Of a stretch of DNA of 64,000 nucleotides, positions 2,066 through 17,643 are shown piece by piece. Origin of the DNA: a virus. The notes below the pieces were generated by a model that saw only the letters and a program-made list of their open reading frames with translations, was not told where the DNA came from and made no database searches. Made by a program: the position numbers and the translations under genes. Within the stretch, counting starts at the first letter, position 1, and every line of letters starts with the position of its first letter. The DNA is taken from IMG/VR virus record IMGVR_UViG_3300037069_002364, positions 5,500 to 69,499 of that record; one strand, written 5' to 3'.

Positions 2066-2971
2066 CTAAAATGGTACGGCTTCGTCGTTGATGTGGACGC
2101 CGCCGTTCATGCCCGTGATCACTGCCGCCGCCTCATCGGGCACGTCACACTGCGAAATGAAATGGATGGCGTAATTGAGAATGTCCTTCGGCAGCGTGCC
2201 GGGGCCGTACTGCGGCTTCTCCGGGTTGACGGGGCCGGTGGGAATGATCTTCTCCTGCGTGTTGAAGGTCTGCGCGACCCACCCCTCCAACTCGCGCACG
2301 CACTGACCGACGTTGCCGCCCGTGAAGCCGTTGGCGGTCAGGTACTCGTTGACTTCCGCCATGCGCGTGCTGTTCCCGTTCGGGGCATGCTCCCCGTAGG
2401 GACTGGCCTGTGGGGGCGCGGTGCGTATCGGTGTCGGCGCTGCCTGTGGTGGACGCGGGCCGTTCGGGGCGTGACTGTCGGGGCGGGCCGCGCCAGTGGC
2501 GGGGGCGGGCGCGCTCGGTGCGGGCCGTGGGGTGGGGGCGGATGCAGCAGGCGGGACGTAATCGGGATACACGTCCTCATCGAACTCCGCATCGACCAGT
2601 TGATCCCAAATATATAGGGCGACTCCGAAGCGCATCGCGCACCGCTTGAGCGCGTCACTGTAGGCGTTCTTGATCTCGTTGGTAAAGCCGTCCTGACGCT
2701 GCGGGCCACCCGATTCGACACGGGAGACGCCACCAATCGTCATCTCCAGCGTCACGCCCGCACAGTGGATGACACCCTGCCCATCGAGGTAGGTGTGGGT
2801 GGCGACATTGCGTACCGACCAGTCGGGCGCGAGTTTGTTCAGGCGCTCCGTGACGATTGCGTGCGAGATGTAGGACATCGCGGGCGCGTTGCCGCGTCCC
2901 GGCTTCTTCTTGACCACTTCATCGGGGAACTTGGACGCCAGTTGCGCCAGTGTCGTTGCGTAGTCGGTCAT
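2066..2971 (-). CDS. Rad52/Rad22-family single-strand annealing protein with Pro/Ala-rich linker
   Basis: MSYISHAIVTERLNKLAPDWS...EIKNAYSDALKRCAMRFGVALYIW is the Rad52/Sak signature. Confidence 0.85.
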   Translation of the reverse strand: MTDYATTLAQLASKFPDEVVKKKPGRGNAPAMSYISHAIVTERLNKLAPDWSVRNVATHTYLDGQGVIHCAGVTLEMTIGGVSRVESGGPQRQDGFTNEIKNAYSDALKRCAMRFGVALYIWDQLVDAEFDEDVYPDYVPPAASAPTPRPAPSAPAPATGAARPDSHAPNGPRPPQAAPTPIRTAPPQASPYGEHAPNGNSTRMAEVNEYLTANGFTGGNVGQCVRELEGWVAQTFNTQEKIIPTGPVNPEKPQYGPGTLPKDILNYAIHFISQCDVPDEAAAVITGMNGGVHINDEAVPF

Positions 2972-3262: not shown

Positions 3263-3556
3263 TCAGTCCCCGAGCATCTGGAAGGTGCCGCGCTCATTGA
3301 TGTGATCCGGCGCGTGGCGAAGACCCTCCAGGACGTGCACGGGGCGGCCAAAGGGATAGCGCGGCGTCATCGGGCGTGGCTTCTGCGCCAGCCGGTCGGC
3401 GATGGGCTGGATGAAGGCGAGGGAGGCGGCGACGGCATCGAGTTCTTCGGGCGCATCGAGTACGCGCTCATCATCGAGTATGGTCAATACGTCCTTGAGG
3501 ACGGCGATCAGTTCACGGCGGCGCTCGTTGCGGTGTTCGCCAACAGTCATACGCAT
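3263..3556 (-). CDS. Hypothetical protein
   Basis: Fits operon spacing between xis and the wHTH gene. Confidence 0.55.
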   Translation of the reverse strand: MRMTVGEHRNERRRELIAVLKDVLTILDDERVLDAPEELDAVAASLAFIQPIADRLAQKPRPMTPRYPFGRPVHVLEGLRHAPDHINERGTFQMLGD

Positions 3557-3888
3557 GATGCGACCCTCTTTCGTGTCTCGTGTGTGACCAGCCAGTGTTC
3601 CAGTGCCTCGCGGCGAATGAGGCGAATCTTCTCTCCCAGTGACACGCTCGGCAGTTCGCCACTGACGACGAAGCGCATCAGGAAACTGCGACTGACGCCG
3701 ATCAGCGCCGCCGCCTCGGTGACATTGAGGGCGATGCGGTTGTGCAGGGCTTCCGTTGACCGCGCCGCGTCGAGCAGTTCCGCCACCATCGTCTGCATAC
3801 GCCCCTCGGTGTACTCCACGAGTTCATTTGCCAGTCCGTCGAGGGCCGACGCGGGCTTGCCAACCGGGGTGATTCGTGCGATACTCAC
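3547..3888 (-). CDS. xis: Excisionase-like HTH_17 protein
   Basis: LNVTEAAALIGVSRSFLMRFVVSGELPSVSLGEKIRLIRREALEHWL; located next to cro/cI/int. Confidence 0.8.
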   Translation of the reverse strand: MSIARITPVGKPASALDGLANELVEYTEGRMQTMVAELLDAARSTEALHNRIALNVTEAAALIGVSRSFLMRFVVSGELPSVSLGEKIRLIRREALEHWLVTHETRKRVASCV

Positions 3889-3946
3889 GATATTCTCCTT
3901 TCCCTCTCGTTACCTGCGGGGATTACCCCTCCTCGCAGGCTGTCCA

Positions 3947-4213
3947 TCAGTCGGCAACGGCGGACATCACCTCCCTTCCACATGATTGATGATAGGCGGC
4001 GATCCGGTCGCGCGCCCGGGCTTGGAGCCAGGTGTGTAGATCATCGGGACACTGGTAATACGCGGCCAGTCGTTCGAGGAGGCGGAAGGTCGGCAGCATG
4101 ACGCCCCGTTCCGCTTTGGAGATACTGGAGTGGGGAATGTGTGATTCCCGTTCGACCTGATAGATCGAGCGAGAGGCGCGTGCCTCCCGCAGCAGTGCAC
4201 CAATCTCGGTCAC
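3947..4213 (-). CDS. Cro-like XRE HTH regulator
   Basis: IGALLREARASRSIYQVERESHIPHSSISKAERGVMLPTFRLLERLAAYY; divergent from the repressor. Confidence 0.85.
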   Translation of the reverse strand: MTEIGALLREARASRSIYQVERESHIPHSSISKAERGVMLPTFRLLERLAAYYQCPDDLHTWLQARARDRIAAYHQSCGREVMSAVAD

Positions 4214-4263
4214 GTTTTCCCCTTTCCTGTTCCCCCGATGCGTACTTATACAAGTACGTAACC

Positions 4264-4292
4264 ATCGTACAGGATGCCCCGAGGGGCGTCAA
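4264..4292 (-). promoter_or_regulatory. sigma70-type promoter for the cro-xis-rep operon
   Basis: TTGACG-N17-TACGAT on the minus strand; operator box at 4242-4257 just downstream. Confidence 0.7.
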
Positions 4293-4345
4293 GGGGGACG
4301 GGAAGTGGTATGCATACGGTCAACGATATTCGTCCCGCCACCCCC

Positions 4346-4374
4346 TAGTACGTTCCGAAAAAAGAACGTATACT
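4346..4374 (+). promoter_or_regulatory. Probable repressor promoter with an operator in its spacer
   Basis: TAGTAC-N17-TATACT; the spacer contains GTTCCG-AAAA-AAGAAC (4352-4367). Confidence 0.5.
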
Positions 4375-4434
4375 GACGCGTGACAGGAGCGACGCGAAGC
4401 CAGAATGGTTTCGGATGCGGAAGGTGTGACGGTC

Positions 4435-5199
4435 ATGACGAAAGGGATTCACCCACTGGCGCTCGGGACGATCCTCTTGGAGTTGCGCCGCAAGTACGAG
4501 GTTTCCAAGTATGCGATTGCCCACAGCACGGGCGGTATCCGCCCCCTCAATCACGGGCTGATCAGTCGCATCGAGTTGGGCGACTGCATTGCCCCGACGT
4601 ACGAGACCTTGCAGCGGATCATGGACGGCATGGATGCGGCGTCGCAGCGCGGCGCATTGGGGGCAGGAACGCGCAAGATGCTCTTTGAAACGGCCTTCGC
4701 CGACCGTATCACCTATGAGGCAGGGAAGTTTGCCGTCTATTACCTCTACCTGCTCGATGACACCGACGCGCCATTGCACCCGGCGCTCGAACGGCTGCGC
4801 GCCATGATGCTCGAAGAGTTCCCGTACATGGGAGAAGACAACCCCGACGCGCCACGCCCGATTCCCGGCACGGCACAGGGGAAGGGACGCACAGCGATTC
4901 GCGGCGTCCGTCACGAGCACGTCAACCTGCGCACCGCGACGGGATTCGAGGCGGTGCGGGTGATGGCGGAGACGCAGGAGGCCCACCACTTGCGTATGGG
5001 CCTGCTCGTGGATGTCGTGCCGTGGCTCACAATGGACTGGGAGGGGGAGCAACTTCGTTTGGGTCAAGGAGACCTTGTGCGCGCAACCATACGGAAATCC
5101 GGGGGCGACGTGTCAAGGGGGGCAGCGGCACCGAGCGATACGACCGATACCCGCATCGTGCAATTGTTTGCGGACCAAGAAGATGAACAGCCGCAATGA
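4435..5199 (+). CDS. CI-like XRE-family repressor, no recognisable intact S24 peptidase domain
   Basis: LGTILLELRRKYEVSKYAIAHSTGG...LISRIELGDCIAPTYETLQRIMDGM HTH; divergent from cro, upstream of int. Start 4435 preferred over 4405. Confidence 0.8.
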   Translation: MTKGIHPLALGTILLELRRKYEVSKYAIAHSTGGIRPLNHGLISRIELGDCIAPTYETLQRIMDGMDAASQRGALGAGTRKMLFETAFADRITYEAGKFAVYYLYLLDDTDAPLHPALERLRAMMLEEFPYMGEDNPDAPRPIPGTAQGKGRTAIRGVRHEHVNLRTATGFEAVRVMAETQEAHHLRMGLLVDVVPWLTMDWEGEQLRLGQGDLVRATIRKSGGDVSRGAAAPSDTTDTRIVQLFADQEDEQPQ

Positions 5200-5410
5200 C
5201 ACGCTTGGTCGTCTCGGTGTCCAGTTCGTCAAACGCATGTTCTAATCCCACGTCCCCATTTCCCTTCGTGCGAGAAAGCCACCGCAGGCTCTCACCCCAT
5301 CTCGCGTACTCTCGGATACACCACGCAGTATATATGGCGGAACAATTCTTGGCAATACCTTTATTATACAATCGGTGGGATTGTCGCAGGACAGGAGGCG
5401 CAGCAAGGCG

Positions 5411-13522: not shown

Positions 13523-14020
13523 TTACCAGATTGTGCCATCCTCCGCCAGCAACTCGGGCAGCAGATGGTTCATGTTCGCGCTGTTCCGCTCGTCATTCGA
13601 CTGGGAGAGGGCGATGCGCTCCGCGACCGACATCTCCCCGAGCCATTCGCGATAGAGCGCGCAGAGCGCGTCGTAGTCGGGGCGTCCCTGCTGGTCAAGG
13701 TTGTACAGTATCTCGTCATCCAGAAAGGCGTAGAAGCGGCCAATCGGCCCCATCGTCGGCCCGATCTCTTTGAGTCGGGTGATGTACAACACGGTCACGC
13801 GCTCCTCGTCAATGTATTCGTCAAAGAACTGCTCGGGCGTCACGGTGGAGATGGAGCCGAGGCCGAACGAGAGTCGTGTGTAGCCTGCGGGCTGGTCGTT
13901 GAGCCAGATGACGATCTTGCCCGAATCCTCGTTGACCTTGTACGATTCCTCCCCGGAAAAGCCGTTACCCATCGCCTCCGCGACCCATTGCATCGCCGCT
14001 TTCGTACGTTCGTCACTCAT
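13523..14020 (-). CDS. Hypothetical protein
   Basis: ORF track; GGAGG RBS. Confidence 0.65.
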   Translation of the reverse strand: MSDERTKAAMQWVAEAMGNGFSGEESYKVNEDSGKIVIWLNDQPAGYTRLSFGLGSISTVTPEQFFDEYIDEERVTVLYITRLKEIGPTMGPIGRFYAFLDDEILYNLDQQGRPDYDALCALYREWLGEMSVAERIALSQSNDERNSANMNHLLPELLAEDGTIW

Positions 14021-14077
14021 TCTGCCCTCCTTTTGGCGCAGTATACGACAGGCAAGGCGAACGCATTGCTTCCCCTC

Positions 14078-15493
14078 TTAGCCGAGATATTCCAGGTACT
14101 TGATCTCGCTCATCGCCTCGGGCGTGACGGTGCCGTTGATGCCCATCAGGAAGGCGTCACCGTCAATCGCAATCGGCGTCGCAGCGACCAGCGCGCCGTT
14201 GTGCTTGGCGACTTTCGCGTAGCGCACCTCGGCACCCTGCTTCATCGCCCGCTGAAAGAACTTCTCAATCGTCGGTGGCGTGTAGCCGAAGCGCAGTTTC
14301 GTCGCCTTCGGTGGGCGCGACGGCTTGCTGGTGGCGGCGATTGCCGCTTTCGTTGCCTTCGCCACCATCTCGGCACGGGCGTCATGCTGCAACTGCTCTT
14401 GCTGCTGGATGGGATACTCATGAGGTGATGACGGCGAGAACGTCACGGGAATGTCACTGAAATGTCCGCCTGTAACCGCGCACGTCGCTTCTGCCTCGCA
14501 GAATGCAGGCGCATCACAATCGTTACACGGGATGCCGGGCGGTGGGCCAATGCGCTCAGTGCTCCATGTCTGCCCGTCGAGTGCGATGGAGTGACGCGCT
14601 TCCTTTGCCGCCGCCATCCCTGCGAGGGTGTACGCATCGAAGGCCACGGCCTCGTTATACCCCTCGACATCGCCCTCCCGAGCCGCGTGGTTCATCAGGA
14701 AGTCGGCGGTGAGTTCGTCTGCGCCATCATCCGTATCTTCCTCCGCGTTGCAGTCGCCGCACGAGGGATTGCCTTCGCCATCAAGGTGGGTCGCCGTATC
14801 GTCGCAATGCACACAGCGCGTTGCTCCTTTCGCCATGTACGCGTTGTACAGTGTGCGCATCTCCTCGACATTCGCCACCACGACTTTGCCGCGCTTGATG
14901 TCCTTGATCCAGTAGCCGTTACCGTTCCCCTCGCTGTCGTCGGTGGCCCATGCGGTCAGGGCGTCCTCAAGCGTGTCGAAATGCTCGGAGCCGGTGCCGC
15001 GTTCACCGTTGCGCATCCGGTAATACTCGAAGTCCTCGGGCAGCGCGGCAAGCCGTTCCTCTTCCTCCTTCTCAAGCGCGCCCCTCTCTTGCTCGCGCAC
15101 TTCCTCGTATATCTTACTGTCGAACACGCCGGGAAGCACGGGATAGTCGGCGGCATGCATGCAGCGGATCGTGGCGCGACTGCTGCCAAAGGTGATCGTC
15201 AGGCTCTCGCGCCGCCAGTCCCGTTCCAATGCCACCGGCACGCCCTTCGGCACCAGTTTCAGGTAATCGGCAAACTCCTTCGCGGGTACGCAGGTCGCGC
15301 CGTACGCGTCAATACCGCTACCGACGAAGCGGTGCGCCGTCTGTTCGAGGTTCGTTCCGGCGATGAGGAAGCCGCCCGCTTTCGCTTCGAGGACAAAGGT
15401 ATTGAGGATCGGCAGATGGGTTCGCTTGGCGATGCTCGGCTTGACCACCGCCAGCGCGTCGTTCAGGTCGTTGCTCATTGCGGTCAGTTTCAT
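14078..15493 (-). CDS. Beta sliding clamp domain I fused to ~350 aa unknown extension (Cys-rich and acidic segments)
   Basis: MKLTAMSNDLNDALAVVKPSIAKRTHLPILNTFVLEA...IAGTNLE...GATCVPAKEFADYLKLVP...LTITFGSSRATIRCMHAADYPVLP matches DnaN domain I; AAGGAGG RBS before ATG 15493. Confidence 0.8.
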   Translation of the reverse strand: MKLTAMSNDLNDALAVVKPSIAKRTHLPILNTFVLEAKAGGFLIAGTNLEQTAHRFVGSGIDAYGATCVPAKEFADYLKLVPKGVPVALERDWRRESLTITFGSSRATIRCMHAADYPVLPGVFDSKIYEEVREQERGALEKEEEERLAALPEDFEYYRMRNGERGTGSEHFDTLEDALTAWATDDSEGNGNGYWIKDIKRGKVVVANVEEMRTLYNAYMAKGATRCVHCDDTATHLDGEGNPSCGDCNAEEDTDDGADELTADFLMNHAAREGDVEGYNEAVAFDAYTLAGMAAAKEARHSIALDGQTWSTERIGPPPGIPCNDCDAPAFCEAEATCAVTGGHFSDIPVTFSPSSPHEYPIQQQEQLQHDARAEMVAKATKAAIAATSKPSRPPKATKLRFGYTPPTIEKFFQRAMKQGAEVRYAKVAKHNGALVAATPIAIDGDAFLMGINGTVTPEAMSEIKYLEYLG

Positions 15494-15503
15494 GGGTTCC
15501 TCC

Positions 15504-16340
15504 TTATGCGGCGAGATGCATCGGCATGATAACGGCGGCGACATCGCAGCCATCCTCAGTCTGCGGGAGAAAGACGCCGGGATTGTTGCGCCCCTGCATG
15601 CGGAAGATCACGTCGCGGGCCTTGTAACTGTTCAGGAGGTCGTGGACATAGCGCCAGTTGAAGGCAATCACGTTGCCATCGCCATCAAAGATACCCTCGT
15701 TGATCGTTTCCACGGCGTCACCGATCTCGGCGGCGTTCGCGCTCACGGTCAGGAAGCGTTCGTACTCGCCCTGGTCGGAGTTGATTTCCAGTTTCAGCAC
15801 GTCGTTGTTCTCTTTGGCGAAGATCGCGCACCGCTTGACGGCGGCAAGCAAGGCTTCACGGCGCACGCCAATCTCGGTAACGTGCTTCGTGGGAATGAGT
15901 TTCGCGCAGTCGGGGTACGTGCCTTCGATCAGGTGGCTCGTCAGCGAGAGATGGGCACTTTCCGCGCTGATCTGGATGGGCTTGGCGACGGTCGGCATTC
16001 CTTGCGACTCGACCGCTTCCACGTCGGGGTTGAGGTCGCGCCAGCGTTTCGTCGTCAGCGTGATTGGCTCGTCATACTTGCCGATCTGCTTGATCAGCGA
16101 CTTGACGAACTCGATGGGTACAATGGCACTATCCCACTCCTCATACTCAATGGTCGCATTCGCTACGGACAGGCGGAAGCCATCGGTCGCCTCGGCAAAG
16201 AGGCGTGCGCCATCCTGTCCCGAAACCGCCCGCAGATGGACAGCGTGCAGCACGGGCCGGGAATCGTCGGTCGCCGCCGCATAGACGGTGTGGGTGAGCA
16301 GGGATTTCAAAACTTGTGAATTGACCGTCAATTGGCTCAT
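15504..16340 (-). CDS. dnaN: Beta sliding clamp domains II+III only
   Basis: YAAATDDSRPVLHAVHL...ATDGFRL...LIEGTYPDCAKLIP...LLAAVKR...IAFNWRYVHDLL...VIMPMHL; domain I absent. Confidence 0.9.
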   Translation of the reverse strand: MSQLTVNSQVLKSLLTHTVYAAATDDSRPVLHAVHLRAVSGQDGARLFAEATDGFRLSVANATIEYEEWDSAIVPIEFVKSLIKQIGKYDEPITLTTKRWRDLNPDVEAVESQGMPTVAKPIQISAESAHLSLTSHLIEGTYPDCAKLIPTKHVTEIGVRREALLAAVKRCAIFAKENNDVLKLEINSDQGEYERFLTVSANAAEIGDAVETINEGIFDGDGNVIAFNWRYVHDLLNSYKARDVIFRMQGRNNPGVFLPQTEDGCDVAAVIMPMHLAA

Positions 16341-17242
16341 TGCGCTTTCCCTTCTTTCGCGTAGACATAGAGGACGCCCGCCACATCACACAACAGGCAG
16401 TATCCTTTCTGCCAAACGTTCCAGCGTGCTCGTACGTGGTCGCGGTGCGTTTGCGCGAGGGTCAGGCCGTCGCAGACAAGCATGCGGGCATACAGTTCCG
16501 CATCCGCCGCCGCAGCCCACGCCGCATCCCACGCCGCATCCCACGCCGCATCCCTCGCCGCAGCCCTCGCCGCATCCGCCGCCGCATCCGCCGCCGCAGC
16601 CCGCGCCGCAGCCCACGCCGCATCCCACGCCGCATCCCTCGCCGCAGCCCTCGCCGCAGCCCTCGCCGCATCCCACGCCGCAGCCCTCGCCGCATCCCAC
16701 GCCGCATCCCTCGCCGCAGCCCTCGCCGCAGCCCTCGCCGCATCCCACACCGCAGCCCGCGCCGCATCCCTCGCCGCAGCCCTCGCCGCAGCCCTCGCCG
16801 CATCCGCCGCCGCAGCCCGCGCCGCAGTGAGCGTCGGCGCGGTAAAGAGTCGCCACGCGGGATCGGGTTGACCATCCGGCTTGCCGAATGGCGTTGCCGG
16901 TATCTCCTCGGTGACGAACCGCTCGACGGCGTGCCACCAGTCAGGAACGGCCTCTGGAGCGGGCCGCAAGAGGCGGCAGCGATTGGTCACGATCTTGTCT
17001 GTTTGCGTGTCGTGAATGATGTCTGGCTCGGCGGCGTAGACCTCCATGCCAACGACCGGCCACTGCATCGGGTCAGTCGTCAGGTGGTATCCGCGCTCGC
17101 AGATGACGGGGCGTGTGATGGTCGGCGTCCAATCGCCGGGCGTCACACCGCCGCCACTCACAGTTGGCAGCGACCACGTATACCTGCCGCCGTGCGTGGA
17201 TTGGCCCGCTTTGAGTACCTTGTAGTATGTCGGTGCGCTCAT
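16337..17242 (-). CDS. Phage protein with AA(R/W)(D/A) tetrapeptide repeat region
   Basis: Globular N-terminus YYKVLK...VICERGYHL, then ~27 repeats such as [12 protein letters not shown]. Confidence 0.75.
16500..16826. repeat. 12-bp degenerate tandem repeat (GCCGCA-TCC/GCC-CAC/CTC/CGC), coding
   Basis: Directly visible; encodes the Ala-rich repeats on the minus strand. Confidence 0.9.
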
Positions 17243-17643
17243 TGTGCCTCCCATTTCTCCAAAAACTCGCCAGCGGTCACCATGCTTGCCTCGCCGCCCT
17301 CATCCAAGCGTCTTAAGTCCACCATGTCATCGAACTTGAGCGCCAAGCGATTGAGTGCCGGTGGCAGCGGCTCCATTGTCCCGTATTTCGCCGCAAGGCG
17401 GTGCTCGGCATAGTGTGGCTCCGAGTGATGGGTGTCGAACGCCTCCTTTGTGACGGAAGTCACGGTGCCCCCACCGGTCTGCGGCAGGACGAAGAAGTAA
17501 TAGTCGGGGTGCTGCTCGGTAAGGTATTCCGCGATGACGCACGCCGAGGGTTCCTGGCATTGCCCGACCACAGCGGTCGGCTTCATGCCCCGCACCCATG
17601 CGATGATCGGCTCAACACTTTCGGGAATAACGACTTCGCTCAT
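17239..17643 (-). CDS. Hypothetical protein, Cys-motif paralogue family
   Basis: VVGQCQEPSACVIAEYL...PDYYFFVLP...LPPALNRLALKFD. Confidence 0.7.
   Translation of the reverse strand: MSEVVIPESVEPIIAWVRGMKPTAVVGQCQEPSACVIAEYLTEQHPDYYFFVLPQTGGGTVTSVTKEAFDTHHSEPHYAEHRLAAKYGTMEPLPPALNRLALKFDDMVDLRRLDEGGEASMVTAGEFLEKWEAQ

Follow-up and report, generated by a model that had tools for sequence, protein, structure and literature searches.

A beta-clamp gene split at the domain I/II linker and reordered in a soil phage: a candidate four-chain ring with a tethered C-terminal barrel

The bacterial beta clamp is treated as a single three-domain chain that dimerises. What kind of protein results when the domains of such a clamp are found on two genes and in the wrong order? 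This question is raised by a pair of adjacent open reading frames (ORFs) in a 64,000-nt stretch of DNA, hereafter the window, taken from the IMG/VR virus record IMGVR_UViG_3300037069_002364. The whole record measures 71.6 kb and has an estimated completeness of 82%. The pair lies on the minus strand, and coordinates are given as positions in the window. The first gene, ORF1, encodes domains II and III of a beta clamp and nothing else of it; the second, ORF2, opens with domain I and continues into a long tail. The reading that we favour, and to which we give somewhat better than even credence, is that the two products form a four-chain beta-type ring, which recruits the host Pol III and carries a tethered barrel.

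Clamp domains distributed over two genes

In Pfam searches, ORF1 matched DNA_pol3_beta_2 at residues 6-144 (2.3e-13) and DNA_pol3_beta_3 at residues 147-274 (1.3e-15), with no match to domain I, and its residues 6-274 were aligned by phmmer to residues 139-377 of the Bacillus subtilis DnaN (4TR6). Domain I is found at the beginning of the next gene, where residues 1-121 of ORF2 match positions 1-120 of 120 of the DNA_pol3_beta N-terminal profile (6e-13). All three families, PF00712, PF02767 and PF02768, are above their gathering scores (49.4, 50.9 and 57.7 bits) and spread over two genes, and PF00712 occurs only once in the virus record. The remainder of ORF2, residues 122-471, has no match to any Pfam or PHROG family. 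Among the PHROG families, ORF1 matches phrog_947, the full-length clamp, far better than phrog_3007 (1.4e-30 versus 1.8e-12), and it also matches phrog_12598. The original prediction, made from the DNA letters, had described the first gene as running from the onset of domain II to the canonical C-terminus VIMPMHL and the second as opening with a complete domain I. Both descriptions agree with the Pfam matches and the sequence, and the profile search that it proposed divides the three DnaN domains cleanly between the two genes.

The break point falls in the domain I/II linker. Indeed, the domain I of ORF2 ends with ...ADYPVLPGVFDS, and the first residues of ORF1 form the first strand of domain II. 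The start ATG of ORF1 overlaps the stop of the upstream gene (ATGA), and its C-terminus ...VIMPMHLAA is followed by TAA. After this stop come GGAGGAACCC and then the ORF2 ATG at 15493, in the +1 frame with respect to ORF1. The junction therefore bears out the earlier claim of a next gene placed 10 nt on, in another frame and with its own AAGGAGG; the sole correction to that first reading concerns the start codon, the upstream ATG at 15553 not being the start of ORF2. The resulting gene order is permuted, II+III first and then I, and it differs from the single I-II-III chain of DnaN by a stop, a 10-nt spacer and a frame change. The overlap of the stop with the Shine-Dalgarno sequence, together with the short spacer, fits a translational coupling of ORF1 and ORF2, and, as judged from the sequence, placing the ORF1 stop within the ORF2 ribosome-binding site would favour equimolar synthesis of the two chains. 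No promoter-like or terminator-like site was found between the pair and its neighbours.

The same II+III then I-tail order is observed in a 4.5-kb contig, L006, binned in a Thermomicrobia metagenome-assembled genome (MAG), GCA_020200375.1. Its II+III piece, truncated where the contig ends, shares 51% identity with ORF1, and its domain I-tail gene encodes a protein of 429 aa, 37% identical to ORF2 over the full length, with 53% identity in domain I. The spacer between the two genes measures 36 nt and contains a GAAGGAGG site. Furthermore, four downstream genes of L006 are homologous to the downstream genes of the window, in the same order and with 54-68% identity. The shared order and the synteny indicate that L006 is a piece of a related phage and that the split is older than the divergence of the two phages. 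Rough Nei-Gojobori estimates, with synonymous divergence (dS) near saturation, gave nonsynonymous divergence (dN) of 0.46 against a dS of 1.15 for ORF1, 0.38 against 1.14 for domain I and 0.44 against 1.13 for the C-terminal domain of ORF2; the dN/dS ratio is thus roughly 0.3-0.4 in all three segments, subject to the same saturation. Values of dN well below dS are consistent with purifying selection on each of them.

Searches for the II-III then I-fusion order, which had also been proposed beforehand, returned this one homologous pair, with dN below dS. A near-DNA search of the phage collection gave no match, pattern scans with ORF2 or with the two-sequence alignment found no further relatives in viral, genome or metagenome contigs, and a word-indexed protein search with ORF2 retrieved only ORF2 itself and one ordinary DnaN. 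Several other candidates for split clamps were rejected. The candidate P0106 turned out to be a chromosomal dnaN next to recF, truncated where its contig stops, and P0006 is likewise a cellular dnaN. Among phage matches that extend over two annotated genes, Phrank15 and RR1-A carry an intact dnaN with gene overlaps of 4-8 nt, and Pseudomonas phage 73 has a full-length clamp.

At positions 613-654 of L006, the two genes share a frame, with one TAG and 12 sense codons between them. Read-through at this site would give a circularly permuted II-III-I fusion. The shared frame may be due to chance (the expectation is about 1 in 5), and a read-through fusion was rejected as a conserved feature because the frames differ in the window.

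Two JGI samples, 3300036652 and 3300036651, and Logan contigs from three soil-metagenome runs contain the gene pair of the window with 100% identical DNA. One single contig per run, with a depth of 76-91x, covers positions 13800-16537 with no differences, indels or joints, and the Logan contigs end only within a 12-nt tandem repeat of the gene upstream of ORF1.

Table 1. Features of the gene pair and their positions in the window
Feature	Coordinates	Strand	Description
ORF1	15504..16340	-	278 aa; beta-clamp domains II+III only
Domain II	15909..16325	-	ORF1 residues 6-144; Pfam DNA_pol3_beta_2
Domain III	15519..15902	-	ORF1 residues 147-274; Pfam DNA_pol3_beta_3
Junction	15494..15506	-	ORF1 TAA at 15504-15506; Shine-Dalgarno AAGGAGG at 15499-15505, overlapping the stop; 10-nt spacer
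ORF2	14078..15493	-	471 aa; domain I, then tail of about 350 residues
Domain I	15131..15493	-	ORF2 residues 1-121; full-length PF00712 match
Tail before barrel	14306..15130	-	ORF2 residues 122-396; low-confidence model
First Cys cluster	14750..14815	-	C227, C230, C245, C248; CxxC-x14-CxxC, zinc-knuckle-like insert
Second Cys cluster	14480..14527	-	C323, C326, C332, C338; CxxC-x5-C-x5-C
C-terminal domain	14081..14305	-	ORF2 residues 397-471; one helix and five strands

Origin of the two halves and retained clamp residues

In BLAST searches, both halves best match the same group of about 405-aa proteins, with 33-38% identity. These relatives come from Thermomicrobiales and Chloroflexia MAGs, where they are encoded by chromosomal dnaN genes with recF next in line. 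FastTree trees were built separately for II+III and for domain I and rooted on deltaproteobacterial DnaN. The phage II+III pieces form one clade and the phage domain I sequences another (support 1.0 for each), and in both trees the sister group consists of the same 11 Thermomicrobiales sequences (support 0.96 for II+III and 0.86 for domain I). The stems of the phage clades are of similar length, 0.82 and 0.98, respectively. Since both halves stand beside the same Thermomicrobiales DnaN clade, they derive from one captured host gene, which was split and reordered. In the simplest history suggested by these sequences, a host dnaN would have been captured once and then duplicated in tandem or rearranged, with the first copy losing domain I and domains II-III of the second copy being replaced by new sequence.

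To compare the pieces with ordinary clamps, conserved columns were defined as those at least 90% conserved in 50 cellular relatives. ORF1 keeps 47 of 64 such columns (cellular median 63), among them the invariant P143, N228, M272 and P273, and it also keeps Y231 and M274; R24 is kept in domain I. ORF1 furthermore retains TDGFRL (as ATDGFRL), IEGTYPD, FNWRY and VIMPMHL, which correspond to the partner-binding pocket and C-terminal motifs established for the E. coli beta clamp.

Several departures from the cellular sequences are common to both phage copies. The changes R19P, A20S, T37A, L42F, T68C, L74F and G111C are found in each, so that their fixation predates the divergence of the two phages and they have persisted ever since. 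In addition, domain II of ORF1 carries a 20-residue insertion, residues 103-122, without counterpart in the 50 closest cellular DnaN, and L006 has an insertion at the same site. This insertion flanks the predicted contact with domain I (see below). Where domains I and II meet, the shared insertion and the shared substitutions may make up for the missing covalent link. The two pieces also differ in charge: domain I is basic, with an isoelectric point (pI) of 9.0 versus 5.2-6.9 in cellular relatives, and ORF1, with a pI of 5.1, is acidic, as in ring clamps.

A predicted ring and its alternatives

Two copies of ORF1 and two of ORF2 residues 1-128 were co-folded, using custom alignments of 52 and 51 rows. 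The three ipSAE values were 0.80, 0.81 and 0.80, and the best of three controls gave 0.00. In the calibration of the tool, 58 of the 80 solved complexes reached the mark, as did 2 of the 110 mismatched pairs, figures that apply only roughly here, with custom alignments and a differing job. In the co-fold, each ORF1 copy contacts domain I through residues 75-85, 98-104 and 123-136 of domain II and through residues 166-174 and 205-214 of domain III, and each domain I copy uses two surfaces, 15-20/50-55/120-123 and 70-80/97/104-110. Set against E. coli beta, the latter surface, paired with the domain III segments, matches the canonical dimer interface. The co-fold reports contact sets and not residue pairs, and their geometry suggests a closed 2:2 ring because a single domain I is unable to span from one end of a half-ring to the other. 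The four-chain clamp with a cargo, put forward in the original prediction, is matched by the 2:2 score, far above the controls, and by contacts at both edges of domain I, and its standing is that of a structural model.

We propose the following scheme. A phage of soil Thermomicrobiales (Chloroflexota) would have captured the dnaN of its host, and this gene would have been broken exactly at the domain I/II linker, and its pieces reordered, in an ancestor shared with at least one diverged relative. Two II+III chains and two domain I-tail chains would then assemble into a six-domain beta-type ring through two predicted types of contact, the canonical dimer interface between domains III and I and the contact between domains I and II, which is normally intrachain and would here lie between chains. 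The pockets of the II+III chains could hold the host Pol III on phage DNA. The domain I chains would close the ring, and their two tails could hang on it a nucleic-acid- or partner-binding barrel, for which single-stranded DNA (ssDNA), an RNA primer or a phage replisome protein are candidate ligands.

The polymerase expected in this scheme is that of the host. No match to Pol III alpha (PF07733) and no polymerase-sized ORF were found in the early arm of the phage, and no clamp loader in the 82%-complete record. Since no phage polymerase was found, the phage most likely replicates with the host Pol III. Phage-borne intact dnaN genes are common, and many of the phages that carry them have no polymerase, as in Rhizobium phage 16-3, Arthrobacter phages and Sinorhizobium phage NV1.1.1; many temperate phages with an intact dnaN likewise replicate with the host Pol III.

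Several points weigh against a four-chain ring. Only two instances of the pair are known. Domain I keeps only 17 of 36 conserved columns (cellular median 35.5), a loss with which its function may have shifted. The success of the co-fold may partly reflect memory of solved DnaN rings, so that it indicates likeness rather than binding. The record's missing portion could harbour an intact dnaN, or genes for a polymerase or a clamp loader. Finally, clamps made of II+III only are apparently partnerless elsewhere (PMC3201878), and by analogy ORF1 might be functional alone.

A further and rather unlikely extension of the scheme is that a ring in four pieces is a self-assembling clamp that can do without a clamp loader and captures the host Pol III for the phage alone. 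The four non-covalent joints could let the ring close around DNA. The basic domain I and the basic barrel could bind a primer-template junction or a phage replisome protein and so nucleate closure by II+III, and the invariant KLRFG(Y/F) that precedes the barrel could staple the tail into the II/III pocket.

The first alternative to the four-chain ring, raised in the original prediction as a decoy and a poison, is that the two pieces act on the host clamp and not on each other, shutting off or redirecting host replication or entering mixed rings. The domain I-tail protein would cap domain III of host DnaN monomers, and the II+III protein would bind the host domain I or soak up host proteins that bind the clamp. 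Phage proteins that target DnaN are known, both free edges of the pieces are natural partners of host DnaN edges, the pocket is intact, and domain I has moved further from the cellular consensus than II+III, as the counts of conserved columns indicate. On the other hand, with only 33-38% identity between the halves and the nearest host-type DnaN, mixed interfaces become less probable. Both phages keep the two genes side by side and in tight coupling, the derived changes and the insertion at the mutual interface are shared by both, and the pieces co-fold together at 0.80. An action on the host clamp thus seems to us unlikely, though it deserves to be kept in mind.

A second alternative takes ORF1 as a self-sufficient short clamp, either a PCNA-like homotrimer of two-domain chains or a non-ring processivity factor, with ORF2 acting separately as an adaptor, its domain I serving only to dock the barrel on the ORF1 clamp or elsewhere. 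Kazlauskas and Venclovas (2011) found that 5 of 12 phage homologues of the polIII-beta subunit consist of domains II+III only (PMC3201878), and these two domains can be aligned to the pair that PCNA has (PMC8357120). Like the short phage clamps (PHROG 3007 and 12598, 'mini clamps'), both of which families it matches, ORF1 is made of II+III with an intact pocket. Those clamps, as described, have no domain I partner, whereas a complete domain I from the same donor lineage lies next door to II+III in both phages, in the window only 10 nt downstream. Moreover, the much better match of ORF1 to phrog_947 places it closer to full-length clamps, its acidic pI is that of ring clamps and unlike that of basic loader-free factors, and in the co-fold domain I sits between domains II and III. 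A short clamp with an independent adaptor is, in view of these features, quite unlikely.

A third explanation, a functionless and decaying remnant of a duplicated dnaN, is strongly disfavoured. It is true that II+III followed by I is the order that a partial deletion of a tandem duplicate would leave, and the small number of known instances would suit it. Against decay, the two phages, with 36-68% identity between their proteins, both keep the two frames open and strong ribosome-binding sites ahead of them, all three domains exceed the Pfam thresholds, and dN is lower than dS in every conserved segment. The tail does not derive from decayed domains II-III, an origin rejected on an hhalign probability of 0.5%. 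The clean breaks and intact ribosome-binding sites, from which the original prediction had argued against decay, are now joined by a syntenic, diverged relative and by the low dN.

An assembly or chimeric artefact, a danger that had been named at the outset, can be dismissed, since five assemblies from separate samples agree across the junction, the deep contigs cross it without joints or indels, a diverged and independently assembled genome has the same order, and nothing was found to support an artefact apart from one 175-nt contig with a depth of 10x in one run (X3). Only about 56 nt of this contig match the window, at 15471-15527, with 2 differences and 1 gap, and it may come from a rarer relative or an unrelated organism.

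The tail, known relatives and the genomic setting

The tail of ORF2 alternates conserved and variable parts. The helix right after domain I (residues 122-150) is 55% identical between the two phages, and the conserved motifs AALPxxFxY, FxTLxxAxTxW, GPPPGxPC and SxPHExPIQxQExLQHD were identified. The last 75 residues are 51% identical to the L006 copy and basic in both phages (pI 9.1-9.5; 9.1 in ORF2). The region between the helix and this C-terminal domain is acidic (pI 4.1-4.7) and poorly conserved, with a stretch of alpha/beta structure that is weakly conserved. The two Cys clusters occur as insertions in the phage of the window and are absent from L006, where only C323 is kept; they look as if zinc knuckles had been gained in a disordered linker, within the acidic tether. 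The early description of a cargo of about 350 aa with Cys clusters, acidic tracts and a C-terminal domain is thus accurate as to its content, except that conservation does not extend to the CxxC clusters. A profile search of the tail against 1.84 billion representative proteins found only the proteins of the window and of L006, and a search of the ESM Atlas gave low TM scores only, with no usable feature match.

The AlphaFold2 model of the whole tail is mostly unusable (mean pLDDT 44), with the exception of the C-terminal domain. When folded alone, this domain has a mean pLDDT of 73.4, with 74-89 in its core, and shows one helix followed by five strands. By VIA-align it resembles Hfq (Z 8.0-8.6) and the WYL domains of PafBC, DriD, BrxR and CapW (Z 7.3-9.0), with Z up to 9.3 for Hfq and WYL domains taken together, over 60-69 residues, Z values of 8-9 being often reached between unrelated small barrels. 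Foldseek gave weak matches to WYL, DUF2642 and YolD-like models. No match was found in BFVD at an E of 0.001 or better, and none in Pfam at an E up to 1, including PF13280 (WYL) and PF17209 (Hfq). Collectively, the models suggest that the domain likely belongs to the Sm/Hfq/WYL/SH3-like class of small-barrel folds. Binding of nucleic acid is no more than plausible for such a barrel. The WYL domains named above bind ssDNA or RNA; the ORF2 domain is basic and its predicted fold resembles that of Sm/Hfq and WYL barrels, and it differs from them in having no sequence-family match.

A search for clamp-binding motifs of the QLxLF type in the phage replication proteins gave loose matches only, one in ORF2 (KLRFGY) and one in the gene that follows it (RLSFGL). 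The first is modelled with medium confidence as a short bridge adjoining the barrel and is not clearly a free peptide. The gene after ORF2, 13523-14020 on the minus strand, encodes a 165-aa protein which is 61% identical to its L006 counterpart over 72 residues. Its RLSFGL, which loosely resembles hexapeptide clamp-binding motifs, is matched by RLRLLL in L006 and probably forms a buried strand.

How does the pair relate to systems already described? Its nearest relative is the DnaN of Thermomicrobiales, with which it shares all three domains, the pocket, the C-terminal motif and the canonical interfaces, the last as predicted. Unlike DnaN, it consists of two polypeptides with a 350-residue tail on domain I, and the predicted ring has four chains and four non-covalent interfaces. 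The II+III-only phage clamp has already been published. A domain I fusion paired with it was not found in the literature, and full-text searches gave no report of a domain I partner gene, of the permuted order or of a heteromeric beta-type clamp.

Rings made of different chains, one of which is tailed, are established in the crenarchaeal PCNA1-2-3 and in the eukaryotic 9-1-1 with the long C-terminal tail of Rad9. Those rings contain three two-domain chains that arose by gene duplication (PMC3201878, PMC8357120), whereas the pair arose by fission of a three-domain chain into 1+2. The resemblance is one of analogy and not homology of arrangement. A replication protein whose separately encoded pieces reassemble is the DNA polymerase of PhiKZ with Rhc, which combines RNase H with a clamp-derived domain (bioRxiv 10.64898/2026.09.30.755723), and there too a clamp-type domain is flexibly linked to another module. 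However, Rhc is a single non-ring subunit on the phage's own B-family polymerase, in contrast to the pair, which is reordered, has a predicted ring and lies in a phage where no polymerase was found. In genes split by mobile elements, the insert lies between pieces in native order; here there is only the 10-nt spacer, with no endonuclease or intron, and the order is permuted.

If the four-chain ring is real, a covalent link is not required to keep domains I and II in contact, and the pair would be a living model for how two-domain (PCNA) and three-domain (beta) clamps relate. It would also represent a clamp with the potential for loader-free assembly on DNA and a new route by which a phage lacking a polymerase takes over the host replicase. 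The domain I-tail architecture suggests, in addition, a design for hanging cargo on a sliding clamp.

The early arm of the phage is encoded on the minus strand. It includes a methyltransferase (39-935), a DnaD-like protein, initiator or helicase loader (1210-2052), and a single-strand annealing protein of the Rad52-like kind (2066-2971, minus strand). The last ends with ...NDEAVPF, which resembles the acidic-IPF tip of the bacterial single-stranded DNA-binding protein (SSB), a tip that serves to recruit proteins of replication and repair. Immediately beyond the edge of the window, the minus strand of the virus record also carries genes for a 591-aa Toprim and DnaB-like primase-helicase (record positions 3556-5331), a DUF1064 protein (1685-2731) and a small protein whose end resembles region 4 of an extracytoplasmic function (ECF) sigma factor (490-1035).

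The gene upstream of ORF1 (16337-17254, minus strand), whose stop gives the ATGA overlap, matches only PHROGs of unknown function (phrog_8332). It contains, at 16498-16826, 27 copies of a 12-nt unit that encode the Ala-rich AARAAxRDAAWDA. Short-read contigs break at this repeat, and the summed contig depth exceeds 2000 there, which indicates that similar repeats are common in these soils.

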